The notes under the pieces: generated by a model
Database searches by the model: none
Seen by the model: only the letters and a program-made list of their open reading frames with translations
What the model was told of the DNA's origin: nothing
NCBI GenBank assembly: GCA_038882975.1
Contig: JAVZNE010000001.1
Coordinates: 128,001-192,000 of the forward strand
Reading direction: 5' to 3'
DNA length: 64,000 nucleotides
Source: Candidatus Bathyarchaeia archaeon
Lineage (GTDB): Archaea > Thermoproteota > Bathyarchaeia > Bathyarchaeales > Bathycorpusculaceae
Shown: in pieces, positions 4,184 through 55,215 of the stretch
Position numbering within the stretch: the stretch's first letter is position 1
How the letters are laid out: each line of letters opens with the position of its first letter
Program-made: the position numbers and the translations under genes

Positions 4184-5164
4184 TTATGGGGAAGGTATCC
4201 CAGCAACTTTGGGAAATGGAACAGCGTCCCAGATATTTTCAAGACCGCAGATAAACCTTGTAAGCCTCTCAACACCTATTCCAAAACCCGCTGAGGGGGG
4301 AATGCCAACCATCAACATGTCCAAATACCACCCATAATCAGCGGGATTTTCACCGCTTTTCAGCATCCTCTCCAAAAGCTTGTCATATCGATGCTCTCTT
4401 TTCCCGCCTGAAATTGCCTCGCCGAAACCATCCGGATATAGTAGGTCAAAATCTTCTAAAACGCCATGTTCTTTTTCGCTTTCCATGTAGTAAAAGCTTC
4501 TAGCCGTGGCTGGAAAGTTTGTTATCCAAAAGGGCTCCCCGTGCATCCTTGATATAGCTTCCTCCGCCTCCCACGGAATTTCTTTGCCATACTCCACACT
4601 TATTCCAATACCCTTGAGAATTTCAAGAGCTTCTCTGTATGTGTATCTTTTGAATGGCAATTTTGGCACTTTCAGCATTTTTGCGCGTTCTCCAAGCTCT
4701 TCGCGGCACTTGTTTTTCACATGGGTTATCACGTGGTGGAGCATTCTTTCGCCTAGCTCCATCACATCTTCGCATTTGGCATAAGCAACTTCAAGGTCTA
4801 TTTGCCTAAACTCTGTTAGGTGGCGACGTGTCCCCAAAGTTTCTATAGGTTCTAGTCGTATGTTTGGCGATAATGCGAAAACTTTTGGCAAAGCCGTGAT
4901 AATCATTTGTTTGTATAGTATCATACTGCTCATAACTTTGAAAGGAAAACCATAATAGTCTATAGTGGCTTGCTTTGCCCCTCTAATGCCGGGATCTGTT
5001 GCAGGTCCAATGATGGGCGCCAAAATTTCGATAAAGCCCTCATTTTTTAGGAAAGCCCGGATTGATGATATTATTTCATCTTGAACTTTAAAGACGTTTG
5101 CCAGTCCATTATTTTTTAGTGTTATGTACCTTTTTTTTAGGCTTTCGAAGGGGTCGCTGCTCAT
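4184..5164 (-). CDS. asnA: Archaeal-type asparagine synthetase A (AsnRS/AspRS catalytic-core paralogue without anticodon domain)
   Basis: 326 aa class II aaRS core: SPNIRLE..RHLTEFRQIDLE, GEAISGGKRE, PPSAGFGIGVERL; no OB-fold N-terminus. Confidence 0.82.
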   Translation of the reverse strand: MSSDPFESLKKRYITLKNNGLANVFKVQDEIISSIRAFLKNEGFIEILAPIIGPATDPGIRGAKQATIDYYGFPFKVMSSMILYKQMIITALPKVFALSPNIRLEPIETLGTRRHLTEFRQIDLEVAYAKCEDVMELGERMLHHVITHVKNKCREELGERAKMLKVPKLPFKRYTYREALEILKGIGISVEYGKEIPWEAEEAISRMHGEPFWITNFPATARSFYYMESEKEHGVLEDFDLLYPDGFGEAISGGKREHRYDKLLERMLKSGENPADYGWYLDMLMVGIPPSAGFGIGVERLTRFICGLENIWDAVPFPKVAGIPSP

Positions 5165-5268: not shown

Positions 5269-5775
5269 ATGAGTCTAAAACTCAACGAAAAAGATTTGGC
5301 AATACTGGACTTGCTGCAGAAAAACTGTAAGATGACAGCGAAGGAAATAGCGAGAAAAATAAACTCGCCCATAACAACGGTTTTTGCAAAAATAAAGAGA
5401 ATGGAACAGCAAGGAATAATTAAAGAGTACAGAGCTATCCTAGACCATAAGAAGCTGGATTTTGGCGTGACAGCCTTCATTTTGGCATCCTTCTCCTATA
5501 GAACCAACAAGGAGGAGGAGACACCACTTTCCCAGCGGGCTATAGCTGAGCAAATATCAAAGTTTCCAGAGGTTCAAGAAGTCCACATAATATCCGGAGA
5601 CTGGGACATCCTCATCAAAGTTAAGGATAAAGATGTGGATTCTGTTGGAAGGTTTGTAATAGATAAACTGAGGACTGTGAAGGGGATAGAGAAAACATTA
5701 ACATGCATGGTGTTTGATACGCCAAAAGAGACAACAACCATACCAATACCATTGAAAGCTCTTAAAAAGCTGTGA
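5269..5775 (+). CDS. Lrp/AsnC family transcriptional regulator
   Basis: LNEKDLAILDLLQKN HTH, VHIISGDWDILIKV RAM domain. Confidence 0.93.
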   Translation: MSLKLNEKDLAILDLLQKNCKMTAKEIARKINSPITTVFAKIKRMEQQGIIKEYRAILDHKKLDFGVTAFILASFSYRTNKEEETPLSQRAIAEQISKFPEVQEVHIISGDWDILIKVKDKDVDSVGRFVIDKLRTVKGIEKTLTCMVFDTPKETTTIPIPLKALKKL

Positions 5776-21447: not shown

Positions 21448-22833
21448 TTATTTAACGTTGCGCCTAAGCCTTTCCAAAAGGCTATTTTTGGCTTTCTCCA
21501 CCATTTCCATAACCTTCTCAATATTTAATGTTGTTAGGCGTCTGTTTTCCATCACTATTTTTCCGTTTATTATGACGGTTTCAACATCCGCCGATTTTGC
21601 AGTATAAACAAGATGGCTAAACTCATTATAGAGTGGGCATAGATGCGGCTTATCAAAGTTTATGATGGCTAAATCAGCCTTTTTCCCCACTTCTATTGAG
21701 CCTATCTCATTCTCCCAGCAAAGAGCCCTAGCCCCATCCAAAGTTGCCATTTTCAAAACTTGCTGGGCAGACATTACTGTCGGATTTCCGCTTACCCCTT
21801 TATGGAGTATGGCTGCCACCTTCATAACCTCAAACATGTCCGCAGCATTATTGGAACATGGACTGTCTGTGCCAAGCGAGACCGTTACGCCTTGTTCCAG
21901 CATTTTTGGAACGGGACTTATGCCTGAAGCAAGCTTAAGATTTGAAATTGGGTTGTGGGAGACCTTAACGCCTCTGGCTTTCATTAACGCCATATCATCG
22001 TTCGTTAGTGCCACACAGTGCGCTGCGATAACACGCTCGTCTAAAACGCCCAAAGAGTCCAAATACTCCATTATGCCGCCTTTAACATCAACATTGAAGG
22101 CTTTCCGTATCTTGTCAGCCTCGTCAAATGTTTCTGCCACATGAATGTGCCACATAATTGGCGCCTTTTCAGAACCATACTTCCCATCGAGTTCCTCGCG
22201 TAAAGCCTTCAGCTCCTTCATATATTCTGGGTCAACGGTGTAAGGCGCGTGGGGGTCAACACTTACGCGGATAAGCCCCCCAGCCTTATTATGCCAGTTT
22301 TTGGCTAAGTCTTCCAACGCTCTTCTATCCTCATCCTTCCTCCATGAAAAGCAAACATGCCCAACAACGCCTCTGACACCAGCATCTACAAAAGCTTTCG
22401 CCTCATTCTCCCCTGGCATGTAATGGTACATCGTGTTAACGGTTGTTGTACCGCCCATTATGGATTCTACAGCCGTCAGCAAGCTGCCAACATAAATGTC
22501 TTCAGCGGTCATCAACGCTTCTATGGGCCATATCCATTTTTCAAGCCACTCTTGAAGGGGTAAATCGTCGGCATAACCCCTCAAAAGGCTCATGGCTGCA
22601 TGTTGGTGAGTGTTTATAAGCCCTGGAATCACAACCTTTCCTTTGGCGTTTATCTTCTCATAGCCAATTGCATATTTACGAAGTATCGGCTCAGTTTTCC
22701 CAACATCAACTATTGTCCCGTTTTCTATAGCTATGGCACCGTCGCGAATTATTTCATCCCTTCGCATCGTGACTACGGTTCCGCTGTGGATTAGAATGTT
22801 CAATTTTAGTATCCCCTCCGCCTTTTTGAACAT
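21448..22833 (-). CDS. mtaD: 5'-methylthioadenosine/SAH deaminase (amidohydrolase)
   Basis: [24 protein letters not shown]; adjacent to ahcY. Confidence 0.82.
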
Positions 22834-42373: not shown

Positions 42374-44407
42374 TCAAGTCTTTTTCAAATAGCCTTCCCT
42401 AGGTTCGTATATAGTTCCTTCTCGCAGGAGTTGATTGATTAGGCGTTCAGCCTCGATTCTTGGAATCTTGTATTCTGTTTCAAGCCTGTTGATTAAGGCG
42501 TTTTTGTCAACCATTCCTATTTCTTTCTCCATTTCCGTCAGCACTGAAAGTAGCATTTGTAGCTTGTCTCTGAGGCTTTTGGGTTTTCCAGTCATTATGA
42601 GGTCTATGTCAAATTTGTATGAGGATAGGTCTATTCCAACCTCTTCCAGAGACTTTTTCATTATGTTTATGGCTGCTTCGGCGTCTTCTGCCAAAACTTC
42701 CGTTCTTAGGGCGGCTCTAGCTCTGGCTTCAGCTAGGCGTATAAGCGATTCCAATTGTCTGGCGGTTATCGCAATTGGGGAGCCCTCCGATTCACTTGCT
42801 GAACGCATAGCCAGATAGAAATCCCTTAAACGCTGCAGTGCCTCGCCAGTTAGGACTGGTTTTATCGTCTTTGCATAGCTTACGTATTTTCGCAAAAGTT
42901 CTAGAGATATGGGTGATTCCACGGGGCTTAAGCCTTTACGGTGAATTTCGAGGATGTGCTCCGACATCCTACCGTCTATTTCCTTGTTGGGAACATCCCT
43001 TAACACAAATATTAGGTCAAACCTTGAGAGGATGGTTACTGGAAGTGAAATGTTCTCCGCAATTGTTCGGCGGGATTCATATCTGCCCAAAGCAGGGTTG
43101 GCAGCCGCTAATATAGCTGTTCGCGCGTTAAGAGTTGCCACTATGCCGCCCTTCGCCACAGAAACCGTGTGCTGTTCCATGGCTTCATGGATTGCAACTC
43201 GGTCTTCCGGGCGCATCTTGTCTATCTCGTCTATACAAGCTATTCCCTTATCCGCAAGCACAAGGGCTCCGGCCTCAAGGCTCATTCCACCGCCCTTTTC
43301 GCGTATAACCGCTGCAGTCAAGCCAGCCGCGGTTGTCCCCCTACCAGAAGTGTAAAGTCCTCTAGGTGCAACCCGAGCCACATACTGCAATAGCTGGGAT
43401 TTGGCTGTTCCAGGGTCACCAACCAAAAGAATGTTCAATTCTCCCCTTATTGATATATCTGGAAGCGCCTTAGGAACGCCTCCAAAAAGCAGATACATAA
43501 TCGCCTCTTTGACGTGCTCGTAGCCGTAAATCGAAGGCGCAATAGAGTTTATTATTTTTCTGTGTATCCACGGATCCTTTGCAAGTTCAAGAATCTGCCT
43601 CTCCTCTTCCGGCGATGGAAGTGTTGCTTCAGGTTCTTTGCCTAAAACCTCGATGGAGTTTGTATCTAGGTGTAAGACGAAGGTGCGGAGTTTTCCAACC
43701 TTGGGCATGGTTGGGGCTGCAGCACGAACTATGCCAACGATTGAAACATGGTCGCCTGGTCTAGCCACATCTACAATCTCGCTTCCAACAAGCTTAACAT
43801 GTAATGTGCGTGGAAGCTGTCCCGGCGGGAGATCTTCTGGGCGTTCTTGTATGCGGAGGTCTTGTGAATCTATGAAGGTTGATTCTTCTTGAACGAAGTC
43901 GAAGGGTCCTTTTCGTCTACATGAAGGGTCAGCGCATGCAAAAGGTGCCTTAAGAAACGGGCCTGTTTGATCCACATATGTTATGTTTCCGCATCCTCTG
44001 CATTTGAAGGCGGCCCGCATCACCATTGGGCGGACTGGTGTTGAACGAACAACTATACCTTCAATCATCACCAGCTTTCCAATGTGGGCTGCGCCAAGTT
44101 TCCGCAGAGGCGTTGGCTCCAGAAGCCTAACAACTCGAACAGTTACCTTTTGTTTTTCTGCGTATTCTGGAGCCTCTATGGCTAGCTGGTTTTGGGCAGC
44201 ATTATCCGCGTGCTTTAAGTATTCATCTGGTTTCTCCAGAAGCTTATCCGCAAGTCTATGGTCGAAGGTGAGGATGTCTTCAAACTCAACTACGAGCGAT
44301 GTTTTCCCAGAAACAGCCAGCTGCGAAATCCGTTGACGATATTTCTCCGTTTTAAAAAGCTCTAGAAATCGTTCCTGCGGGTCTATTACTTCCAGCTCTT
44401 CAGTCAT
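42374..44407 (-). CDS. mcm: Replicative helicase MCM (no intein)
   Basis: GDPGTAKS, CIDEIDKM, SRFD, Zn-finger. Confidence 0.98.
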   Translation of the reverse strand: MTEELEVIDPQERFLELFKTEKYRQRISQLAVSGKTSLVVEFEDILTFDHRLADKLLEKPDEYLKHADNAAQNQLAIEAPEYAEKQKVTVRVVRLLEPTPLRKLGAAHIGKLVMIEGIVVRSTPVRPMVMRAAFKCRGCGNITYVDQTGPFLKAPFACADPSCRRKGPFDFVQEESTFIDSQDLRIQERPEDLPPGQLPRTLHVKLVGSEIVDVARPGDHVSIVGIVRAAAPTMPKVGKLRTFVLHLDTNSIEVLGKEPEATLPSPEEERQILELAKDPWIHRKIINSIAPSIYGYEHVKEAIMYLLFGGVPKALPDISIRGELNILLVGDPGTAKSQLLQYVARVAPRGLYTSGRGTTAAGLTAAVIREKGGGMSLEAGALVLADKGIACIDEIDKMRPEDRVAIHEAMEQHTVSVAKGGIVATLNARTAILAAANPALGRYESRRTIAENISLPVTILSRFDLIFVLRDVPNKEIDGRMSEHILEIHRKGLSPVESPISLELLRKYVSYAKTIKPVLTGEALQRLRDFYLAMRSASESEGSPIAITARQLESLIRLAEARARAALRTEVLAEDAEAAINIMKKSLEEVGIDLSSYKFDIDLIMTGKPKSLRDKLQMLLSVLTEMEKEIGMVDKNALINRLETEYKIPRIEAERLINQLLREGTIYEPREGYLKKT

Positions 44408-45006
44408 TTCTCCTTCTCCACGCCTCCTTCACTTTCGCTTTCAAGCATTTGAGCCTTCCACCTATTAATAAGCCTATAAATCTGCTCGTAAAGAATTCTC
44501 TCTTCTGCCATAAGGTTCCTTAAAACATGCTCGGTTTGGGCTGGGGCAGAAGCCAAGGAAACAATTTTCTTTAATCTTAAGTTTAAAATGTCCAGCGCCA
44601 ACTGTTTCGCCTTCTCATATTCCCGCATTTTCTCAGGATGCCTAACAGCCTCCTCTCTTAACCCATCAAGGTATCTGCGGAGTTTCGGATAAAAATCCTT
44701 GGGAAGTTCAGAAATTTGCCCAGCTGTTTGGACACGCTCCTTCCAATGAATCTTGTAAAGCTTGGTTGAGTCAAGCAGTTCCTCGCTTCTAAAGCGAACA
44801 ACACCAAACTTTTCAAGCTCTCTGGCAACCCAATACATAACCTCATACTCGTTTCCCTCCTCGAAGGGACCGACAATTAATCCTGCCAGCCTAATTTCCG
44901 GGCAGTTGCGGTTGGCAATAACCTTAACCGGCGAGTTCTCAAACATGAAGTCTAGGGCTTTAATTTTCCCGGAAATGCCCACCTGCAAAGCACTTTCTCC
45001 TTTCAA
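44404..45006 (-). CDS. GINS subunit Gins23/Psf2-like
   Basis: B-domain then A-domain order (WVARELEK..LPKDFY); immediately upstream of mcm. Confidence 0.82.
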   Translation of the reverse strand: MKGESALQVGISGKIKALDFMFENSPVKVIANRNCPEIRLAGLIVGPFEEGNEYEVMYWVARELEKFGVVRFRSEELLDSTKLYKIHWKERVQTAGQISELPKDFYPKLRRYLDGLREEAVRHPEKMREYEKAKQLALDILNLRLKKIVSLASAPAQTEHVLRNLMAEERILYEQIYRLINRWKAQMLESESEGGVEKEK

Positions 45007-45100: not shown

Positions 45101-46351
45101 TTAAGGCCACAAGCCCAAAGTCTTTATTGCCTCAGCCACCCGTCCTACTCCCAACATTAGGGCGGCTGTTCGCATGGGTTCCTTCGCATCTTTTGAGGTT
45201 TTGTAGACGTCGTTAAATGCCTTCACCATTTTTCTTTCAAGCTTCTGGTTCACTTCCTCTAAAGTCCAGTGCTCCCTTGTTAAGTTTTGAACCCATTCAA
45301 AGTAGCTTACTGTGACGCCGCCGGAGTTTGCTAATATGTCTGGAATTAAGAACACATCCTTTTCATTGAGCACTTTGTCGGCTTCTGGGGTTGTGGGTCC
45401 GTTGGCTCCCTCGGCTATTATTTTTGCTTTTATGTTGTTGGCGTTTGCTTTTGTAATCTGATTCTCTAATGCAGCGGGCACCAAAATGTCACATTCCAAC
45501 TGCAGCAACTCCTCATTAGTTATGTTCTTGCACCCTTCAAAGTTTAGGACGGAACCTGTTTTCGCCTTATGCTCGTAAACCTTGTAGGGGTTTAATCCTT
45601 CCTTGCAATAGATTCCTCCGCTGGAGTCGCTTACACCTATTATTTTGCATCCCCAATCGTAGGCTATTTTTGCGGCGTTCCATCCCACGCTGCCAAACCC
45701 TTGAACCACAAATCTTGCATCTTTCATTTTTAAACCGAGGATTTTTGCAGCTTCTCTTGCGCAAAACATAACACCAAGAGATGTAGCTTCAGCCCTTCCT
45801 TCAGAACCTCCAACACTTAAAGGTTTTCCAGTAACACATTCTGGGACACTGTAGCCTTTAAATTGGCTGTAAGTGTCCATTATCCAAGCCATTGTTTGGG
45901 CGTCTGTGTAAACGTCCGGCGCCGGCACGTCACGATATGGTCCAATTAGGTCTAAAATTAGGCTTATGTATCGCCTTGTTAGCCTTTCAAGTTCGCCTTT
46001 GGACATTTCCTTTGGGTTACAGCAAACTCCTCCTTTAGCTCCTCCATATGGAATATCAACGACAGCGCATTTCCAAGTCATCCACATGGCAAGGGCGGTA
46101 ACTTCGTCCAAGGTTACGTTTGGGTGGTATCTTATGCCGCCTTTAAAAGGTCCCCTCGCATCGTTGTGCTGAACACGACAGCCTAGGAACGTTTTGATTG
46201 TGCCATCATCCATCCTAATGTTAACAGAAACCATAAGCGTTCTTTTTGGATATTTTAGCATCTCATGCAGTCCGGGGTCAAGCTCAAGTTTTTCTGCGGC
46301 TATTCTTAACTGCTCCAGTGCAGTATCTAGAGCTGAGTAACTCTTTTCCAT
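45101..46351 (-). CDS. gdhA: Glutamate dehydrogenase (Glu/Leu/Phe/Val dehydrogenase family)
   Basis: [43 protein letters not shown]. Confidence 0.95.
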   Translation of the reverse strand: MEKSYSALDTALEQLRIAAEKLELDPGLHEMLKYPKRTLMVSVNIRMDDGTIKTFLGCRVQHNDARGPFKGGIRYHPNVTLDEVTALAMWMTWKCAVVDIPYGGAKGGVCCNPKEMSKGELERLTRRYISLILDLIGPYRDVPAPDVYTDAQTMAWIMDTYSQFKGYSVPECVTGKPLSVGGSEGRAEATSLGVMFCAREAAKILGLKMKDARFVVQGFGSVGWNAAKIAYDWGCKIIGVSDSSGGIYCKEGLNPYKVYEHKAKTGSVLNFEGCKNITNEELLQLECDILVPAALENQITKANANNIKAKIIAEGANGPTTPEADKVLNEKDVFLIPDILANSGGVTVSYFEWVQNLTREHWTLEEVNQKLERKMVKAFNDVYKTSKDAKEPMRTAALMLGVGRVAEAIKTLGLWP

Positions 46352-46430
46352 AAGTGTTTACCTCCAAACCTATTATTTTGGGAAGCCTTAAAAGGTTGGC
46401 TGTTAAGCTGGAAGAAAAAGAAGGGAGGGG

Positions 46431-48038
46431 CTAGTCTAAAATTCTTTCTATGGCGTCTGCTTCTGCCTCGTGGGCTAATGGTATACCGGTTACTTTAGCT
46501 GCAAGCTCCGAGAGACTCATTAGGTCGTTTCTGTTGATTAGGTCTAGTCGCCATTTTCTTGCGCCAGCCAATAGCTGCTTTAGCCCAACACCTATGCGGT
46601 CCGTCAAGTAAGTGTATAGGGCTACAGCTTCCCACGGGATTTCCTTGAAACGTTCTCCATACTTTGCCTTTAGCTCTGGAACAGCTATGAAGAACTTCTC
46701 TGGAGTCGCACCAAACTTGTCGGCAAAAGCCTTTGGAAGTTTTCCCTCTTCAGCCAACTGTTTAAAGTAGCTTGCCTTCATCACAGCAGTGAGCGGGGAA
46801 CGGCCCATCAAAACAGCTTTTACGAATGGTCCATCTCCGAAGTTGCTCATGGCTATTGCCTTGAAAATTTGAGTTTCGTTTATGAATCCTCCAGCCATAA
46901 TAATGTCTGGCACGTAGCGGCCTTTCTTCTTCAATATTTGGGCGCACTTAAGCACTATGGCTTCTAGATAAACTGTTGGAATGCCCATCTCATCCATCAT
47001 TGGGACAGGGCTCATGCCTGTGCCGCCACCAGCCCCATCAAAGTATACAGCATCAATCTTTGCCTCAGAAGCTATTTTCAAGGTGTACGCCACTGCTGAT
47101 GGCCTGTAAGCGCCTGTTTTCAAGGTTACATGTTTTGCCCCCTGTTTCCTCAGCCATTCTATGTCCTCTATGACGTTTTTCTCTCCTGGTATGCCAACTC
47201 TGCTGTGCCTTTCAAAGGATTTGAATACGCCGTCTTTGAAGGCTTGCTGTACTGCTGGATCTTCTGGGTCTGGGATTACTATATAGCCCCTTTTCTTTAG
47301 CATTATAGCCCTTTCAAGGTCTCTTACGCGAACTTCGCCTCCTATGGCTTTTGCACCTTGTCCCCACTTTCTCTCTATAACATTGACCTCCAGCTTTGAT
47401 ATGGCGTAAACGTCTACGCCAAGCCTCTGATCTTCAACATTAGTTTGGACGGCTATTTCGCCGTATTCTCCATCCCAGAATTTTCTGAATAGGTCAACTC
47501 TGCGCTTTAGCTCCTTTGAGTAGGTTACTTTGCCGTTTGTAAATTGAGCTTCCGGATCCATGCCGCAGACGTTTTCTCCCACAATTATCATGGCGCCTGA
47601 AAGGGCTGTGCCTATGGCTAAGCCTTCCCAGTTTAGCCTCGCAACATCTGTGGAGCCAAAGGCACCACAGAGTATGGGAACTCTAAGCGGTATGCCGCCA
47701 ACTTTGGTTTCTATGTTCACGTTTGGGAAAAGCGCCAAATCCGGGTCTTCCTTTATTCCATGAGCCTCGAAGAGGCTTGCTTGTATATTGAAATGGGACC
47801 AGTCTAGGCCGAAGTCTTTTAGAGCTCCTGCGGTGCTGAAACCGAATTGTACGGGTTCTGGATAGAGGGCTTCCCTACCTCTGAATGCTGACAAGCCTAT
47901 TTCACACATTATTGGGCAGTCGCGGATGCATATGGGACACATGCCACTTGTGGGACTTGTGTCTTTGACGCGAGTTGTTGTTCCAGTTGTCGATTTCCCG
48001 TTGAGATAGGAGCTATTTCTGAAAACGCGTTCCGTCAT
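46431..48038 (-). CDS. FMN-binding glutamate synthase family protein (stand-alone)
   Basis: N-term CPICIRDCPIMCE, GENVCG, KWGQGAK, DGAGGGTGMSP. Confidence 0.85.
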   Translation of the reverse strand: MTERVFRNSSYLNGKSTTGTTTRVKDTSPTSGMCPICIRDCPIMCEIGLSAFRGREALYPEPVQFGFSTAGALKDFGLDWSHFNIQASLFEAHGIKEDPDLALFPNVNIETKVGGIPLRVPILCGAFGSTDVARLNWEGLAIGTALSGAMIIVGENVCGMDPEAQFTNGKVTYSKELKRRVDLFRKFWDGEYGEIAVQTNVEDQRLGVDVYAISKLEVNVIERKWGQGAKAIGGEVRVRDLERAIMLKKRGYIVIPDPEDPAVQQAFKDGVFKSFERHSRVGIPGEKNVIEDIEWLRKQGAKHVTLKTGAYRPSAVAYTLKIASEAKIDAVYFDGAGGGTGMSPVPMMDEMGIPTVYLEAIVLKCAQILKKKGRYVPDIIMAGGFINETQIFKAIAMSNFGDGPFVKAVLMGRSPLTAVMKASYFKQLAEEGKLPKAFADKFGATPEKFFIAVPELKAKYGERFKEIPWEAVALYTYLTDRIGVGLKQLLAGARKWRLDLINRNDLMSLSELAAKVTGIPLAHEAEADAIERILD

Positions 48039-48124
48039 ACATTTTTCACCTTTACGTTTGTAAACTGTGTGGAAGGTTTAAAATTCCATTCGCATTTAAA
48101 GGTTATCCTAAAAGTAACAAAAAA

Positions 48125-48141
48125 TGAACATTCTTGTACAT
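48125..48141. promoter_or_regulatory. Two TGWACAT boxes upstream of the glutamate synthase promoter
   Basis: TGAACAT 48125, TGTACAT 48135 (10-bp spacing). Confidence 0.6.
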
Positions 48142-48148
48142 TAGAAGG

Positions 48149-48901
48149 CTAGTGAATCTCTATATTCAACCCATCGACTATGTACTCTCGTCTTGTGTAG
48201 GTTTGGGGATTATATCTTCCACCAGCCTTCTTAATCCATAAGAAGTTCTTATTCTCCTGTCGAGTGAGGTCTATAACCACCTGTGTCATGTGCTCTATTA
48301 AAGCGCAGAACTCTTTGGGATGAGCATTTTTAGCCATAGTCCAGTAGGCGAGAGTTTGATAAGCATATAGCGCCGGGCAAACGTGTCCAAAGAAGGCTTT
48401 AACAGCATCCCTTCCCCAGTTGTGCTCCATTATCGATAAACTGTTAAAAATAAGTCTTGTACCAGGAGTAACAAATTCCCTTTCAATTCTTCCGAAGAAG
48501 TGGTGAAAACGGTCCGGATCCTTTGAGCTTGGAACTTTTCTAATCCAGCTTGGGGCTTTATCATAAAAATCGCTAAATATTAACTCGCCTTGCCCCGCAG
48601 CTTCTGAAAAACAATCTAAAACCAGTAGTTTCTTTTCCCAACCCTCCGGCAAAGTTTTGGTTAAGGGCTCTAATTGAAGCATAATTGCTTGAGGGGGATA
48701 AATAAATTCCAAATATATGACTTGGTTTCCTTCAATTATGCCCTGCCGCATAAAAGAGTATAAGAATTCCCTCGCAAATGTTCCAGATTCAACCTCCCAT
48801 AAAACATTTTCACCTAATAGCAATCCGCCGCCTAGGAGTTTGTCAAGTCCTTTAACCCCTGTTGAGTAGAAAACTTGCTTTTCGTTAGGGTTATTGGACA
48901 A
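48149..48901 (-). CDS. KaiC/RAD55-like RecA-fold protein with degenerate Walker motifs
   Basis: STGVKGLDKLLGGG; P-loop VESGTFARE (no Lys); Walker B LIFNS. Confidence 0.75.
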   Translation of the reverse strand: MSNNPNEKQVFYSTGVKGLDKLLGGGLLLGENVLWEVESGTFAREFLYSFMRQGIIEGNQVIYLEFIYPPQAIMLQLEPLTKTLPEGWEKKLLVLDCFSEAAGQGELIFSDFYDKAPSWIRKVPSSKDPDRFHHFFGRIEREFVTPGTRLIFNSLSIMEHNWGRDAVKAFFGHVCPALYAYQTLAYWTMAKNAHPKEFCALIEHMTQVVIDLTRQENKNFLWIKKAGGRYNPQTYTRREYIVDGLNIEIH

Positions 48902-48972
48902 TGAAATGCACCGAGGTAAGGTTCACAAGCATCATTAAAAATGTTGCGTCGTCATTTCAGATGTATTAATGG

Positions 48973-49019
48973 TGTACATTTGTGTACATTATGAACATAA
49001 TATTTCTATAGTTGAACAT
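48973..49019. promoter_or_regulatory. Four TGWACAT boxes in the divergent kaiC-like/gdh2 promoter
   Basis: Boxes at 48973, 48983, 48992, 49013. Confidence 0.7.
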
Positions 49020-49057
49020 AAGTCATATTAAGGCTCTAGAATGGGAAGAGGTGGAAA

Positions 49058-50842
49058 ATGAAAATGTTAAACTCTGTGGAGCTTTCCGCAAGAGAGTTGG
49101 GAATGCTTAAGCTGATGGTGGACTTCTTCGCTGAAAAACCTGAGCTGACCGCAAAAATAGAAAGCTACACAACAGCCCACTATGCCCTTCTAACAACGTA
49201 CTCAGAAAACTTTGGAATACCAATCGAAGACTCCCTGAAAGTTTTCGAGGAGCTCCAAAAGAAAATCACGGAAGCTGAATATGTCCATGTTAAGGCACCA
49301 GAGCCCATAAGGAAGCTTCTACCCTTGACTACTGAGGAGTTGAACATGCTGCGAATTCTTGTGGACTATTTCTCTGAAAATCCAAAAATGGCGTCTGCGG
49401 GTTCGATGTTTTCAAGGAAGGAAGACGCCGTTGCCGAAACCTACATGTGGTTTTATGGAAGTAAGGAAGGAAACGGCGAAGTGGCAAGACAAATTCTAAC
49501 AAATCTCGTCGAGAAGCTTCAAACAGCTGTATTTGTAAAAATAGATACTTTGGCGCCCTTAGCTGTTACGCCAAACCCTTACGAAGCCGCCCTTAAGCAG
49601 TTGGACATCGCAGCTGAAAAACTGAAACTTGACCCTGGCATTCATGAAATTTTGAAGCGCCCCATGCGCACCTTAATAGTTAATATTCCAGTGGTTATGG
49701 ATGATGGGAGCATTCAAGTTTTTACGGGTTACCGTGTACAATATAACGATGCATTAGGTCCAACTAAGGGCGGCATAAGATACCACCCAGAGCTAACACT
49801 AAATGAAGTCACGGCACTGGCGGCATGGATGACGTGGAAAACGGCAGTTGTAGGGCTGCCACTAGGAGGAGCCAAAGGCGGAATCAGATGCAATCCCAAA
49901 GAAATGTCCAAAGCTGAATTGGAGCGCCTAACAAGGGGATATGTGCGGGCTATTGCGAAATTTATAGGTCCAAACATTGATGTGCCGGCGCCGGACGTTT
50001 ACACAGACGCCCAAACAATGGCTTGGATAATGGATGAATACAGCGAAATCGTTGGATACCCAGCCTTCGGGGTTGTAACAGGCAAACCTGTAGGCGTTGG
50101 TGGTTCCCGTGGAAGGAGCGAAGCAACTTCAAGAGGCTTAATGTACACGGTGATAGAGGCAGCCAAATACTTAGGGATAAACCTCAAGGGTGCAACTGTA
50201 GCTGTGCAAGGCTATGGAAATGTTGGATACCATGCGGCACGCCTACTGCATGAGGTTGGATGCAAAATCATAGCAGTTTCAGACTCAAAAGGCGGAATAT
50301 ACAACCTCAACGGGCTAGACCCAGAAAAAGTGTTGGAACACAAAAACAGAACAGGCTCGGTGGTTGACTACCCCGAAAGCACATTCATAACAAACGAACA
50401 ACTGTTGGAGCTAGAATGTGACATTCTTGTGCCCGCTGCATTAGAGAACCAGATAACAAAAGCAAACGCCAACAACATAAAAGCAAAAATAATAGCCGAG
50501 GGAGCCAACGGACCCACAACCCCAGAAGCCGACGAAATTCTATTCAAAAAAGGAGTATTTGTAATACCGGACATTCTGGCGAATTCTGGCGGCGTTATTG
50601 TAAGCTACTTTGAACAAGTGCAGAACCAGATGAACTATTATTGGACCGAGGAGGAAGTGCGGAACAAACTGAAAGAAACAATAACTAAGGCTTTCTACGA
50701 TGTCTTAGAACTTTCCAAACAGTATAATGTGAATATGCGCGTAGCCGCCTACATGTTGGCTGTCAAAAGAGTTGCCGACGCCCTCACGGCAAGAAAGGGA
50801 ACAAGACTCGCACCCATTGAATCTTTGCTAGCACGCAGATAG
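49058..50842 (+). CDS. Glutamate dehydrogenase with ~170-aa duplicated N-terminal extension
   Basis: Full GDH core from [10 protein letters not shown] ([20 protein letters not shown]); extension of two ~80-aa repeats. Confidence 0.9.
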
Positions 50843-50860
50843 CTCCCTCCTTTTTCTATG

Positions 50861-50894
50861 TGTTCACATGTACATTTTCAGAAAACGTGAACAT
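50861..50894. promoter_or_regulatory. Three TGWACA boxes upstream of the putative regulator
   Basis: TGTTCA 50861, TGTACAT 50869, TGAACAT 50888. Confidence 0.65.
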
Positions 50895-50939
50895 GTTTAA
50901 AAGCAGCCTTTAAAATAAGTAAACACGACGTGAAGCCTT

Positions 50940-52895
50940 ATGTCTGTTCACCTCCACACAACAATAACAAAAAAGGCAAATGACATACTTGAAGAATTGG
51001 CAAAGACTTATGGCACAAAAAGCCGCGTCCTCGAAAAAGCCCTAGAAACCCTGCTTAGAGTGGATAAAGTTGGCTCATGTGACGACTGCGCCATAAAGGC
51101 TAAAGTAAACGAGCAAACCAAGCTAAGAGAAGCCCTTGACCTAGCCTCAATAAGCAGAAGAAACCTAGACAGCCTTCTAGAAATAGCCATAGGAAATAAA
51201 ACAATTGAGGATTTTATAAAGGAACAAAAAGCAGAAGCAAAAAACACCATAGAAATCCTCAAAAGCTCCATCAGCTGGAAGCCCCCATCAAACTTTAAAG
51301 AATTCCTTATAGTCCTGGAGGAAATTAGAAATCTCACAAACATGTATGAAATACCATCCTACAGCGAAATCGACAATATAGCAATTTTAAGACCAAAAGT
51401 TTTCAAGCGTTTGCCGATAATAGTCGCCTTTCATGTTGCCACAATATTGGAAGGAATAGGGGTCTACTTCGATGTCCGCGTCATGGGCGAGGACATAGCC
51501 ATAAAAATGGTGAGGCCAGAAGTTTACCCCTTAAGGAAGAAAGAATTCGGAGAATTCCTCGAAGAACGAATTGAAAAGGAATTAGCAAATGTTACTCCAG
51601 GATTTTTCAAAAACACTCTTATGCTTGTTGGACCAGCCTTCATGAGCTGGGCAGAAAAACATCTAGAAGAGCCAATATCAGATTTGGGCAATCTTTTAGA
51701 GGATGCCAGAACCGTTTTAGGAGTAGACGAGTTTCCAAAGGAGCCAAGGGATTTTGTAAAGGCCCTATTATCCGCGTTTGTAAAAATGAACTGGTTTAGA
51801 CAGGCAAAGGTTTTAATTGAGAAGGATGAAAACGTCTTGGAGCTTGTTTTCCAAGCTGCATCAGCTTCAATAACGCGAATGTCTGTTGCAGCCTTATCAG
51901 TTATGTTAGCGACTCGAGGGTGGAAAACGCTAAACTATTCAACAGAACACGCAACAGTCAACATGACAATTCAATATGTGGGTGCGGAAGACCAAAGTCT
52001 TCAAGATCAGCTGGCCGAGTTAAGCCTTTTCCAAGTTATAGGCAAACAATTTTTGGATGTTATTCCTGTCCCACGCGACCTTTTCAACTCTTTCGCTTTA
52101 AAAGTCTATGAAAGTGACAAGCGAAAATTTGAGGAGATATATCGTGCAACTGGGACACGCATATCTAATGCTATCCGCATGTTAGCAAGAAATGACCCTG
52201 AAAAAATTAGAAGACTTGCAAAAAACTTCATCCTTAAAAATATTAATGTAACCCAGCCAGATGCTGAGGTTCGCTTCGTGGATGATGAGCACTTTACCAT
52301 AATTTTCAAGCGTATAGACCCTCTCGTAATGAACAGCCAAAGAGTTCTAATAGAATCCATGTTCAAAGAATTGGGTTACGAGGTAACGACAACAGCTTTC
52401 CAAAATCTCTTAAGCTTCAAACTAAAACTTTTGGAAAAGCCGATACTTGCGCCGCTGCCACGGAAAAAACTAATGCAAACATTAATTGAAGGTATGTCAT
52501 GCAACTCTGTAGAGGAGGCATTTGCCATAGAAAAAGAGCAGCTTGATGAACTATTTCCAGAGGACTACCCATGGACAATAAGGGAAGTTGGCGAAAGAAT
52601 CACAGATATGTACAGAGAACTCGGAGTAGAAATTGAAATAGAATATTTTGAGGGGGGTTTCACCCTCAAATACAAAAGCTGCCCATATTACAAACTTGTA
52701 AAAACGGGACAAAAAACGTGGCTTTGCAGCCTCCGCAAAAAAACAATCGAATATATAATCTCACGGGTAAGCCACGGGAAAAAGGGCAAGATAAAAATCA
52801 TAAAGTCCCTACTACAAAACGAGCATCCATGTGAATACGCAATATTTTTAACAGGATTTCTTGAAAGGGAAGAGAAAGCCGAAGCCCAAGAATAG
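50940..52895 (+). CDS. Putative regulator: N-terminal ribbon-helix-helix-like + repeated V4R/MetOD1-like domains
   Basis: VHLHTTITKKANDILEELAKTYGTKSRVLEKAL; CDDC; C-term FTLKYKSCPY..WLC..KSLLQNEHPCEY. Confidence 0.55.
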   Translation: MSVHLHTTITKKANDILEELAKTYGTKSRVLEKALETLLRVDKVGSCDDCAIKAKVNEQTKLREALDLASISRRNLDSLLEIAIGNKTIEDFIKEQKAEAKNTIEILKSSISWKPPSNFKEFLIVLEEIRNLTNMYEIPSYSEIDNIAILRPKVFKRLPIIVAFHVATILEGIGVYFDVRVMGEDIAIKMVRPEVYPLRKKEFGEFLEERIEKELANVTPGFFKNTLMLVGPAFMSWAEKHLEEPISDLGNLLEDARTVLGVDEFPKEPRDFVKALLSAFVKMNWFRQAKVLIEKDENVLELVFQAASASITRMSVAALSVMLATRGWKTLNYSTEHATVNMTIQYVGAEDQSLQDQLAELSLFQVIGKQFLDVIPVPRDLFNSFALKVYESDKRKFEEIYRATGTRISNAIRMLARNDPEKIRRLAKNFILKNINVTQPDAEVRFVDDEHFTIIFKRIDPLVMNSQRVLIESMFKELGYEVTTTAFQNLLSFKLKLLEKPILAPLPRKKLMQTLIEGMSCNSVEEAFAIEKEQLDELFPEDYPWTIREVGERITDMYRELGVEIEIEYFEGGFTLKYKSCPYYKLVKTGQKTWLCSLRKKTIEYIISRVSHGKKGKIKIIKSLLQNEHPCEYAIFLTGFLEREEKAEAQE

Positions 52896-52965: not shown

Positions 52966-53943
52966 TTGAGTTTTGAGATGTGGGCTGAAAAGTACAGACC
53001 AAAAACATTGGACGAGATGGTGAACCAGAAGGAGATAGTGGAACGCCTTAAAAGCTTCGTTAAAGCCAAAAACGTGCCCCACTGCATTTTCGCCGGACCG
53101 CCCGGCACTGGTAAGACTACGGCGGCTCTTTGTTTGGCAAGAGACCTTTACGGCGAATCCTACCGCGAATATATTATGGAGTTGAACGCCAGCGACGAGA
53201 GGGGCATAGATGTTGTACGGGAAACCGTTAAAACCTTTGCGAGAGTGCGCTCCATCGGTGAGGTTCCATTTAAGATAATGATTTTGGATGAGGCGGATAA
53301 CATGACTGCAGATGCTCAGCAAGCTTTGAGGCGGACTATGGAGCGCTATACGGAAACATGCCGATTCATATTGTGCGCCAATTATAGCGGGAAAATAATA
53401 GAGCCCATACAGTCGCGTTGTGCACCCTTCCGCTTTACATACTTGCCACGCGAGGAACATGATAAGTATTTGCGGTACATAGCAGAAAACGAGGGCGTAA
53501 AACTTCTAAATGATGGGCTGGACGCCATCTACGAGGTTTGTGGCGGAGACCTACGAAGGGCAATAAACACTTTGCAAGCAGCCGCTTCGCTTGGCAAACC
53601 TATAGACGCAAAAATTGTTTATTCAATTGCTGGAAGAGCCAACCCAGCAGACGTGCAGAAAATGATTGAAACAGCCATGAGGGGCGACTTCCTTGAGGCG
53701 CGAAAACAGCTCCGAGAAATGATTCAGAAATATGGAGTGGCTGGAAGCGACATAATCCGCCAAATCCACACAGAAATTTTCAGGGCAGACATTCCAGAAC
53801 CATGGAAAATAAAATTGGCAGACATTGTTGGAGAAATCGATTATAGGCTTGTTGAGGGCGCGGATGAAGAGGTCCAATTAAGCGCACTGCTAGCCAGACT
53901 CGTGGAGGCAGCCTATGAAATTAGGGGCTCAAGAAAGGTGTAA
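52966..53943 (+). CDS. rfcS: Replication factor C small subunit
   Basis: WAEKYRP, GPPGTGKT, LNASDERG, QSRC. Confidence 0.97.
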   Translation: MSFEMWAEKYRPKTLDEMVNQKEIVERLKSFVKAKNVPHCIFAGPPGTGKTTAALCLARDLYGESYREYIMELNASDERGIDVVRETVKTFARVRSIGEVPFKIMILDEADNMTADAQQALRRTMERYTETCRFILCANYSGKIIEPIQSRCAPFRFTYLPREEHDKYLRYIAENEGVKLLNDGLDAIYEVCGGDLRRAINTLQAAASLGKPIDAKIVYSIAGRANPADVQKMIETAMRGDFLEARKQLREMIQKYGVAGSDIIRQIHTEIFRADIPEPWKIKLADIVGEIDYRLVEGADEEVQLSALLARLVEAAYEIRGSRKV

Positions 53944-53946
53944 AAT

Positions 53947-55215
53947 GTGTATCAGCCTTGGACCGTTAAGTATAAGCCAAAAAGCTTGAGAGAGGTTGTT
54001 GGAAATCGGGAAGCCATACAAAAGTTTGTTGAATGGGTAAAATCATGGGATAAGGGAATCCCGAAAAAGAGGGCAGCCTTCCTTTATGGTCCGCCAGGTG
54101 TTGGGAAAACTGTTACTGTGGAGGCTTTGGCAAACGATTTTAGAATGGAGTTGGTGGAGAAAAATGCCAGCGACTATAGAACAGAAGAGGCCGTTAAACG
54201 CTTTGCTGGACTTGCATCCCAATATGGCTCATTATTCGGCACGAGAAGGATAATACTATTCGATGAGTTGGACGGTTTAACTGGAACAGCGGACAAGGGC
54301 GGAGTTAAAGCCATAACAGACATAATAAAAACGGCTCAATGTCCAATAGTGCTTATCGCCAACAACGCTTTTGACCCACGGTTTACTAACCTACGCAACT
54401 ACTGCCTCCTAATAGAGTTTAAAAAGCCCCCAACAACCGAAGTTCAAAAACATTTGAAGGCTATATGCCAAAAAGAAGGTATAGACGCGGAGGAAAACGC
54501 CTTAAAGTTTATAGCTCAACGCTCAGAGGGCGACATCCGCTCCGCTGTAACAGACCTCCAAGCTTTGGCGCAGGGCAAGAAACGTCTAAAATATGAGGAT
54601 GTTGCGTGGCTGGGCTTCAGAGACCGTCAAGAGACAATATTCACAGTTTTGAGAATGATTTTGTATGGAAAAACATGCGAAGGAGCTAAACGCGCAGTGA
54701 ACATGGCGGACGTGGACATCGACATGCTCTTTGAATGGATATACGAGAATGTTCCAGCCCATCTAACAGACCCCCACGACTTGGCAACCGCTATGGATGC
54801 CCTTTCAATGGCTGACGTTTACCGTGGAAGAATAAGAAGCACACAAGACTGGAGTTTCATACGCTACGTAATCGACTTCATGACAGCCGGTGTAGCCATG
54901 GCAAGAGTAAACACAAAAACTTCCGGTTGGACTCCATTTCGTTTCCCAGAACGGATACAAGCATTATCTAGGTCTAAGGAGGAACGGGCAATGCAGTTAG
55001 AGATAGGCAGAAAAATTAAGCGCAGATGCCACATATCAGCCATAAGAGCCTTGAAAGAAGTTTTGCCATATCTGCGGATAATCTTTAAAAACAGTGTGGA
55101 GATGGCTGCTGGAATCGCAATGTGGCTTGACCTAAACCGGGAGATGGTTGAGTATTTAGCTGAAAGCAAGGAAAAGGCTGAAGCAATAAACAAGTTTCTG
55201 AGTCAACGCACTTAG
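53947..55215 (+). CDS. rfcL: Replication factor C large subunit
   Basis: WTVKYKP, GPPGVGKT, NASDYR, WIYEN. Confidence 0.95.
   Translation: MYQPWTVKYKPKSLREVVGNREAIQKFVEWVKSWDKGIPKKRAAFLYGPPGVGKTVTVEALANDFRMELVEKNASDYRTEEAVKRFAGLASQYGSLFGTRRIILFDELDGLTGTADKGGVKAITDIIKTAQCPIVLIANNAFDPRFTNLRNYCLLIEFKKPPTTEVQKHLKAICQKEGIDAEENALKFIAQRSEGDIRSAVTDLQALAQGKKRLKYEDVAWLGFRDRQETIFTVLRMILYGKTCEGAKRAVNMADVDIDMLFEWIYENVPAHLTDPHDLATAMDALSMADVYRGRIRSTQDWSFIRYVIDFMTAGVAMARVNTKTSGWTPFRFPERIQALSRSKEERAMQLEIGRKIKRRCHISAIRALKEVLPYLRIIFKNSVEMAAGIAMWLDLNREMVEYLAESKEKAEAINKFLSQRT

Follow-up and report, generated by a model that had tools for sequence, protein, structure and literature searches.

Conserved TGWACAT boxes in a gene cluster of Bathyarchaeia point to an undescribed local gene switch with a 651-residue candidate regulator

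A stretch of 64,000 nucleotides (nt) from a Candidatus Bathyarchaeia archaeon (GCA_038882975.1, contig JAVZNE010000001.1, 128,001–192,000 of the forward strand; hereafter the window, whose own positions are used throughout) contains, at 45101–52895, a cluster of five open reading frames (ORFs) with copies of the short box TGWACAT (W, A or T) in three of its intergenic regions. These boxes point to a local gene switch not previously described, and the protein most likely to operate it is the product of the last gene of the cluster, 651 amino acids (aa) long and referred to here as R651. From left to right the ORFs encode a glutamate dehydrogenase (GDH) of ordinary length (gdh1, 45101–46351, − strand, 416 aa), an FMN-binding glutamate-synthase-family protein with an N-terminal cysteine cluster (GltSL, 46431–48038, − strand, 535 aa), a KaiC/RecA-like protein that lacks a P-loop and starts at TTG (KaiCL, 48149–48901, − strand, 250 aa), an extended GDH with its core at residues 172–579 (gdh2, 49058–50842, + strand, 594 aa) and R651, the candidate regulator (50940–52895, + strand). 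A preliminary description of this DNA had listed the same five clustered genes; all are present, and the Pfam and NCBIfam domain scans agree with the names it gave them.

The same description had placed nine TG(A/T)ACA boxes between these genes, and all nine are there: at 48125 and 48135 upstream of GltSL, at 48973, 48983, 48992 and 49013 between KaiCL and gdh2, and at 50861 (− strand), 50869 and 50888 between gdh2 and R651, eight of them reading TGWACAT on the + strand. The spacings are 10 bp upstream of GltSL, 10, 9 and 21 bp in the KaiCL–gdh2 region and 8 and 19 bp in the gdh2–R651 region. Window-wide, the hexamer TGWACA is not enriched (60 matches vs 58.7 expected) and the heptamer TGWACAT mildly so (27 vs 15.1 expected; 27 was reached in two of 100 shuffles). 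The signal in the window is the clustering of the boxes, not their overall abundance. With intergenic DNA defined by our own greedy ORF call (63 ORFs in the window), nine of 11 intergenic strand-hits of TGWACA fall inside the three cluster regions, which account for 363 of 8,992 intergenic nt, and the other two lie in the unassigned last 1.46 kb of the window. Eight of 26 distinct TGWACAT sites are found in these 363 nt, or 0.57% of the window (binomial P 1.5e-12).

Relatives of the locus were collected by scanning an R651 alignment against one genome per species, which gave 63 loci (61 labelled Bathyarchaeia, Bathyarchaeota or Bathyarchaeales, one Promethearchaeota and one Thorarchaeota), each comprising about 8 kb on either side of R651; the identity of R651 to the window protein runs from 95% down to 51%. 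The three regions add up to 18.5 kb across these loci and contain the heptamer 310 times (16.7/kb), vs 393 times in the 863 kb elsewhere (0.46/kb), a 36-fold difference in density. When distinct sequences were aligned region by region (53 for KaiCL–gdh2, 55 for gdh2–R651 and 40 upstream of GltSL), box columns had 1.85, 1.31 and 1.83 bits, respectively, vs 0.82, 0.72 and 0.84 bits for other intergenic columns. Eight of the nine window boxes are conserved; the ninth, the inverted TGTTCA at 50861–50866 (− strand), is retained in close relatives only. A matrix pooled from 402 site instances has a near-invariant T-G-(A/T)-A-C-A followed by T in 81%, with a weak preference at the preceding base (A 46%, G 28%), so that the core of the box reads TGTACA, which resembles a palindrome, or TGAACA, which departs from it at one position. 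The boxes are thus a real conserved cis-element common to the three intergenic regions, as the preliminary description had supposed.

The geometry of the boxes is as constant as their sequence. In the spacing counts a box was also permitted to read TGGACA, and TATA-like elements were named by eye and by conservation; these near-invariant A+T blocks are presumably TATA boxes. Upstream of GltSL, boxes C1 (48125–48131) and C2 (48135–48141) lie on the + strand (ATGTWCA on the gene strand), 10 bp apart, a spacing found 37 times among 39 distinct sequences. They stand about 24–34 nt upstream of the GltSL TATA-like element (TTTAAAT, 48094–48100, − strand), whose columns are near-invariant in 40 sequences. 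In 37/39 sequences the two boxes are placed 18–30 nt upstream of this element and run opposite in sense to the gene. The first two boxes of the region shared by KaiCL and gdh2 are likewise upstream of KaiCL and opposite in sense to it, with a spacer of variable length: their distance from the putative KaiCL TATA box (48935–48942, − strand; a conserved block in 53 sequences) differs between lineages. On the gdh2 side, boxes A1–A4 (7 nt each on the + strand, from 48973, 48983, 48992 and 49013, the last ending at 49019) bracket a near-invariant A+T block, the TATA-like TTTCTATA (49003–49010, + strand), with three boxes just upstream of it and one 2 nt downstream in the window. The order box, N3–6, TATA, N1–3, TGAACA is kept in 44 of 52 sequences, and the spacings 10, 9 and 21 recur 52, 47 and 47 times among 52 distinct sequences. 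In the R651 promoter, boxes B1 (50869–50875) and B2 (50888–50894), both on the + strand, are 19 bp apart in the window and 20 or 21 bp apart in 52 cases among 54 distinct sequences. B2 ends 1 nt before the TATA-like TTTAAAA (50896–50902, + strand) and abuts it where the TFB recognition element (BRE) would lie, and this box–TATA arrangement occurs in 51/54. Where GltSL has been relocated downstream of R651 (locus L046) or inverted (L039), both of its boxes have travelled along in the same orientation to the gene.

In view of this conserved geometry, and because no Rfam family matches the three intergenic regions (E up to 1) and their folding as RNA is ordinary (z-scores −0.3 to −0.7), the boxes are taken as protein-binding operators, an assignment that we regard as close to shown.

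Arrays of at least two boxes are otherwise almost absent from the 63 loci, the few exceptions lying inside ORFs; pairs at L056 209–238 and L034 17172–17204, and pairs in the gdh2 and R651 coding sequences, were treated as chance on this account. Elsewhere in the window, an inverted pair 30 bp apart (22796–22833) is located at the 5′ end of an amidohydrolase ORF (21448–22833, − strand) that adjoins an S-adenosylhomocysteine hydrolase gene. Should this ORF truly begin with the ATG near 22767, the proximal box would come immediately after a TATA-like CTAAAAT, a layout close to that of gdh2. Chance alone would give, on a rough estimate, about 0.17 such inverted pairs outside the cluster, and the amidohydrolase promoter is possibly a fifth target.

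Comparison of gene order, in which only loci with room for the neighbour in question were counted, bears out the expectation that the gene cluster is kept across relatives. In 54/54 loci the gene directly upstream of R651 is the extended gdh2, and KaiCL is divergent to gdh2 in 50/50, while GltSL and gdh1 keep their window placement in 35/44 and 31/44 loci, respectively. The constant core is therefore a triad of KaiCL, extended gdh2 and R651, with GltSL and gdh1 movable. Among the relatives' loci the cluster contains no further conserved DNA-binding gene. The same triad with boxes is also found in the two loci labelled Promethearchaeota and Thorarchaeota (L061 and L062); in a quick tree of 59 R651 sequences both nest within Bathyarchaeia, beside L059 and L060, which suggests gene transfer or mis-binning.

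Both Pfam domains of gdh1 are above threshold (ELFV_dehydrog E 6e-84, the other E 8e-58), and the best NCBIfam match is GdhA_Arch at 567 bits vs a cut-off of 750. The corresponding values for gdh2 are E 3e-87 and 3e-59 and 632 bits vs 750; as both proteins fall below this equivalog cut-off, their substrate is not proven. In the spacer between GltSL and gdh1 (46352–46430) the stop codon of GltSL is followed by an oligo-T run, and a conserved TATA-like element precedes gdh1 by about 40 nt; the spacer is nearly box-free, with one TGWACA in 32 distinct sequences. gdh1 is thus probably a separate transcription unit that is not under the boxes, and the boxed set consists of GltSL, gdh2, R651 and, less surely, KaiCL. 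The preliminary description had opposed a glutamate synthase plus GDH1 unit to GDH2; this pairing falls with the separate, box-free promoter of gdh1, and the switch is recast as GltSL (perhaps with KaiCL) vs GDH2 and the regulator.

GltSL matches PF01645 at 42.6 bits (cut-off 20.4) over profile positions 188–296 only (109/369), and its relatives carry the database names ‘glutamate synthase-related’ or ‘FMN-binding glutamate synthase family protein’. It has no NCBIfam match and no solved relative, and neither an amidotransferase nor a GXGXG partner was seen in the domain scans of the window ORFs. Between the GltSL TATA-like element and the ribosome-binding site lies a conserved near-palindrome (48056–48065, − strand; GTTTACAAAC in the window, TTTGCAAA in most relatives), which could be a second operator or a 5′-leader element.

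KaiCL scores 40.6 bits against PAXNEB (cut-off 28) and 23.9 bits against KaiC (PF06745; cut-off 26.6), and its residues 4–104 match KaiC chains of the Protein Data Bank (PDB) at E 1e-4. In the alignment it reads GTFAR where KaiC has the P-loop GTGKT, and none of 52 orthologues has the Walker A signature GK[ST] of the P-loop, in keeping with the earlier view of a degenerate KaiC-like gene.

The longest gdh2 ORF starts at 49058 (M-K-M-L-N), but most orthologues can start only at the equivalent of 49064 (M-L-N-S), which suggests that the latter is the start used. The N-terminal extension of about 170 aa (49064–49570, + strand) is fused to GDH in 120/120 of the matches listed, out of 258. It was modelled (predicted local distance difference test, pLDDT, 81.7) as two similar helical units, each composed of a strand, four helices and a strand. 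There is no Pfam match for the extension, and a fold search with its model gave nothing significant (best E 0.16, probability 0.35), the weak top matches being winged-helix regulators and other winged-helix proteins, such as DtxR, MntR, IdeR, ZitR, RPC62 and ScpB. It is acidic in 41/41 orthologues (net charge −3 to −13, isoelectric point (pI) 4.5–5.6), which speaks for a role in protein contact rather than DNA contact.

A word-based search with R651 reached 485 relatives, of which the 120 listed are 633–659 aa long, at least 73% identical and, where named, called ‘hypothetical protein’; among 1.84 billion cluster representatives (50% identity level), 42 match R651, including one full-length cluster and fragments. 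Also among these matches are proteins of 493–519 aa with 21–26% identity, which span residues 1–500 and are without the C-terminal domain. Two further ones, of 530 aa, have residues 5–190 in common with R651 and a receiver domain at the end (E 1e-17 and 5e-23), which indicates that the N-terminal module of R651 serves as the other half of response regulators. Two distant relatives compared with PDB sequences gave nothing at E up to 1.

The N-terminus of R651 (residues 1–42) shows, weakly, the pattern of a ribbon-helix-helix (RHH) unit and is a candidate for DNA binding. The first 45 residues are basic (median pI 9.2), residues 4–8 (H-L-H-T-T) are nearly unchanged (H-[LIF]-H-T-T in 59/60 N-termini), and G25 and E32 are invariant in 37/37 aligned family members, including relatives at 17–25% identity. 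In the full-length model residues 1–10 are unstructured and are followed by helices at 11–24 and 27–40; the strand of an RHH unit would not be seen here because it forms only in the dimer. Matches to the RHH clan, all below threshold, occur in four or five of 37 relatives: RHH_1 in one (E 0.002, 18.4 bits vs a cut-off of 20.5), RHH_3 in two (best E 0.056) and, weakly, ParD and RepB-RCR_reg in one family member each. With one profile CopG (2cpg, 1b01) aligns in register over its whole length to profile positions 1–41 at E 0.5. Prediction of a homodimer of residues 1–70 scored 0.37, against a mark of 0.42 and controls of 0.00, and speaks neither for nor against dimerisation. Directly after the putative DNA-binding unit, S-C-x-x-C at residues 47–50 (51078–51089) does not vary within the 651-aa family or among the 493–519-aa relatives (about 20–25% identity), and is absent from some of the receiver-domain relatives; if R651 dimerises, its two CxxC copies could together bind a metal or an Fe-S cluster.

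Residues 110–500 of R651 are modelled as units of helix-strand-strand (alpha-beta-beta), to which no family was assigned. Comparison of four segments with hhalign detected no significant internal repeat (best probability 33%), so that ‘tandem V4R units’ are only an impression given by the model. Towards the C-terminus, residues 552–635 match MetOD1 (PF18546) below threshold in the window protein (17.4 bits, cut-off 23.8, E 0.0046). The same domain is matched by 24/37 family members at E up to 0.1 (best E 3e-5), and three homologues carry a precomputed PF18546 label; Cys 581, 596 and 631, which lie in this stretch, are in the family consensus. The preliminary description had called R651 an RHH-V4R regulator. 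The V4R-like half of that name stands at the level of the family, as MetOD1, and the RHH half is a weak assignment. The best relevant matches in a fold search with the R651 model were H-NOX chains (E 0.013–0.1, probability 0.9–1.0, about 140 columns, TM score 0.33–0.38 on the target) and TRAPP Bet3-like chains (E 0.05–0.08), the matched part of the model not being identified. A language-model search (Atlas) gave as a lead, with scores up to 0.81, the Pfam 38.1 family AF_0136_C, which was absent from the Pfam scan run here; it is carried by 10–14% of the apparent R651 clusters and by 99% of a 485-aa Methanobacteriota cluster, and the literature search found no paper on it.

On balance, we lean towards R651 being a one-component regulator of the boxes that binds one box per dimer, represses gdh2 and itself, and may activate GltSL and KaiCL. 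The TGWACAT boxes would then be the operators of a local factor that co-ordinates four promoters, those of GltSL, KaiCL, gdh2 and the factor's own gene. R651 is the most likely binder, to judge from its synteny with the boxed genes, its own boxed promoter, the N-terminal pattern and the receiver-domain relatives. Each pseudo-palindromic box would be bound by a dimer of its small basic strand-helix-helix domain, adjacent dimers, with 9–10 or about 20 bp between them, would occupy the same face of the helix, and the other 600 residues, including the MetOD1/V4R-like cysteine domain, would sense a ligand or a partner. Since the boxes flank or abut the TATA-like element at gdh2 and at the R651 gene, R651 bound there would block TBP/TFB, with repression and negative autoregulation as the expected outcome. 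At GltSL and KaiCL, the box pairs well upstream and in opposite orientation stand where archaeal activators usually do, and binding there may lead to activation. The autoregulation proposed in the preliminary description fits the R651 promoter, with its two conserved boxes, one of them abutting the TATA-like element. As to the nitrogen side of the regulon it proposed, no link to nitrogen status is shown by this analysis, and nitrogen sensing by the system is a guess. That description had also reported the absence of NrpR and PII from the window, and indeed no GlnA, Amt, PII or NrpR domain is found among the 64 ORFs scanned.

Several observations weigh against R651 in this role. The window protein has no Pfam RHH match, NCBIfam holds nothing for it, and alone it finds nothing among PDB sequences at E up to 10. 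CopG is not listed when the broader family profile is used, and the top match of that profile, itself non-significant, is a helix-hairpin-helix stretch of DNA ligase (E 0.058). The full-length model is weak (pLDDT 70, predicted template modelling score 0.37); its best fold matches, H-NOX and TRAPP Bet3-like, have E of 0.006 or worse, none reaching 0.001, and the Atlas search on R651 gave leads only (scores up to 0.86). The boxes and the putative DNA-reading strand are both invariant, so that no covariation ties one to the other. The signs of regulation are inferred from box position relative to the TATA-like elements, by likeness to the archaeal factor aCcr1. Finally, only flanks of about 8 kb were seen in the relatives, and a factor or box sites encoded elsewhere are possible.

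These points bear most directly on the first alternative, that the boxes are operators of a factor encoded elsewhere and that R651 is merely a target, acting as a sensor, a scaffold or an enzyme-like partner of GDH2 and KaiCL. About 600 of the 651 residues of R651 are without assigned function and no significant match establishes a DNA-binding fold for it, which would suit such a role, as would the limited flanks over which the relatives were examined. Against this stand the complete synteny of R651 with the boxed genes (54/54 and 50/50), the joining of its N-terminal module to receiver domains in relatives and the lack of any other conserved DNA-binding gene in the cluster; moreover, local regulators commonly adjoin their targets and carry their own sites. 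We consider an outside factor rather unlikely, though a serious contender.

Distinctly less likely, in our estimate, is that the triad acts as a protein-level sensor, in which GDH2 would be a trigger enzyme docking its acidic extension on R651, with KaiCL as adaptor, so that the catalytic state of GDH2 sets the occupancy of the boxes. The glutamate, 2-oxoglutarate and NAD(P)H state of GDH2 would then decide how far R651 occupies its boxes, and the cell would switch between the GltSL route and GDH2; a further input, by metal or redox state, could enter at the dimer interface through the CxxC motif that follows the DNA-binding unit. Such an arrangement would parallel, in archaea and with unrelated components, the bacterial circuits that place a transcription factor under the control of an enzyme of nitrogen metabolism.

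The two similar units of the GDH2 extension invite a further alternative, that they are tandem winged-helix-like units reading the direct-repeat boxes 10 bp apart, which would make GDH2 itself an enzyme-regulator. The extension is found on this GDH paralogue only, always beside boxes, and its top fold matches are winged-helix proteins; however, these matches are not significant (best E 0.16), the extension is without a Pfam match, and its acidity in 41/41 orthologues is unusual for a DNA-binding domain, so that we hold this reading to be very improbable. That the boxes are not protein sites at all, being the product of chance, low-complexity promoter DNA or structured RNA, is scarcely credible: TGWACA itself is not enriched in the window and archaeal promoters are A+T-rich, but the clustering (P 1.5e-12), the 36-fold density in the three regions, box columns far better conserved than the neighbouring A+T-rich columns, the lack of an Rfam match and the ordinary folding z-scores all argue otherwise.

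The remainder of the window is made up of housekeeping and replication genes. The cluster is flanked by MCM-GINS on the left (42374–45006) and by two RFC subunits on the right (52966–55215). These flanks persist in relatives, RFC small and large usually both being present, even in loci L021, L046, L057 and L058, where inversions have put MCM-GINS at the opposite end. The window is rich in replication genes generally (PCNA, both primase subunits, Gins51, MCM, GINS and RFC). An Lrp/AsnC-type regulator (5269–5775) lies beside a gene with an AsnA-like class II synthetase fold (4184–5164); the two make up another small regulatory pair for amino acids, unrelated to the boxes.

Bathyarchaeia are abundant, mostly uncultured archaea, and nothing was found in print on gene regulation for these functions in them. 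Nor did a search of the full-text literature, with subscription-only papers and closed supplements outside its scope, return any account of the boxes, of the extended GDH or of the R651 family. The locus is a compact unit, with eight conserved boxes in fixed geometry at four promoters, and with two odd partners, an inactivated KaiC and a GDH with an N-terminal domain of its own. Binding of the boxes by R651, if it occurs, would give a first function to the R651 family and also a function to its N-terminal module, which in other archaea is joined to receiver domains, and it would amount to archaeal control of glutamate metabolism without NrpR or PII. Recombinant proteins would suffice to test the proposal in vitro, and the organism need not be cultured.

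The closest parallels are with RHH proteins. CopG, MetJ, Arc and omega are small RHH repressors that act on arrays of short boxes, often overlapping their own promoter. Shared with them are the short N-terminal strand-helix-helix and the short (pseudo)palindromic tandem boxes on one face of the DNA; CopG-type repressors, however, have 45–100 aa vs 651 in R651, the box period here is 9–10 or about 20 bp, and R651, for which dimerisation and DNA binding are predicted, has no significant sequence match to that family. In NikR and PutA an RHH domain is fused to a sensor or an enzyme, and neighbouring metabolic genes are controlled. R651 would have the same plan, an N-terminal RHH followed by a ligand-binding or catalytic body, although its body matches neither. 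Among archaeal factors, CdrS of Halobacteria is reportedly an RHH transcription factor like aCcr1, small and single-domain, that acts on cell-division genes. aCcr1 of Sulfolobales is described as an RHH factor that represses through a 9-bp palindromic box present in one or two copies near the TATA box (PMC9976878). Short palindromic boxes beside a TATA box, read by an archaeal factor, are the point of likeness; yet aCcr1 and CdrS are small single-domain proteins with cell-division targets, whereas R651 has large additional domains and the boxes lie at metabolic genes, two of the four promoters here having them far upstream of the TATA-like element.

Other comparisons concern the circuit and the sensory domain. 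In Bacillus subtilis the glutamate dehydrogenase RocG contacts GltC, a factor of the LysR family. GltC controls the glutamate synthase genes of that bacterium (PMC6794564). Here too a GDH and a glutamate-synthase-type gene would be joined in one circuit with a dedicated local factor, in another domain of life, with a factor that is not of the LysR family and with a GDH2–R651 contact that is conjecture. The C-terminal 85–100 residues of R651, which match MetOD1/V4R below threshold and carry three cysteines, recall the MetOD1 and V4R domains, for which three cysteines are likewise described (PMC5847659); MetOD1 was described after receiver domains in methanogens. In R651 the domain instead follows a 500-aa module, and in Bathyarchaeia. 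Archaeal nitrogen control usually uses NrpR or PII, with which the present system shares targets in glutamate and ammonia metabolism, R651 being unrelated to either in sequence. Distinctive here are how large the factor is and how it is built, the lack of a name for its family, its two odd partner proteins and the absence of these usual regulators nearby.

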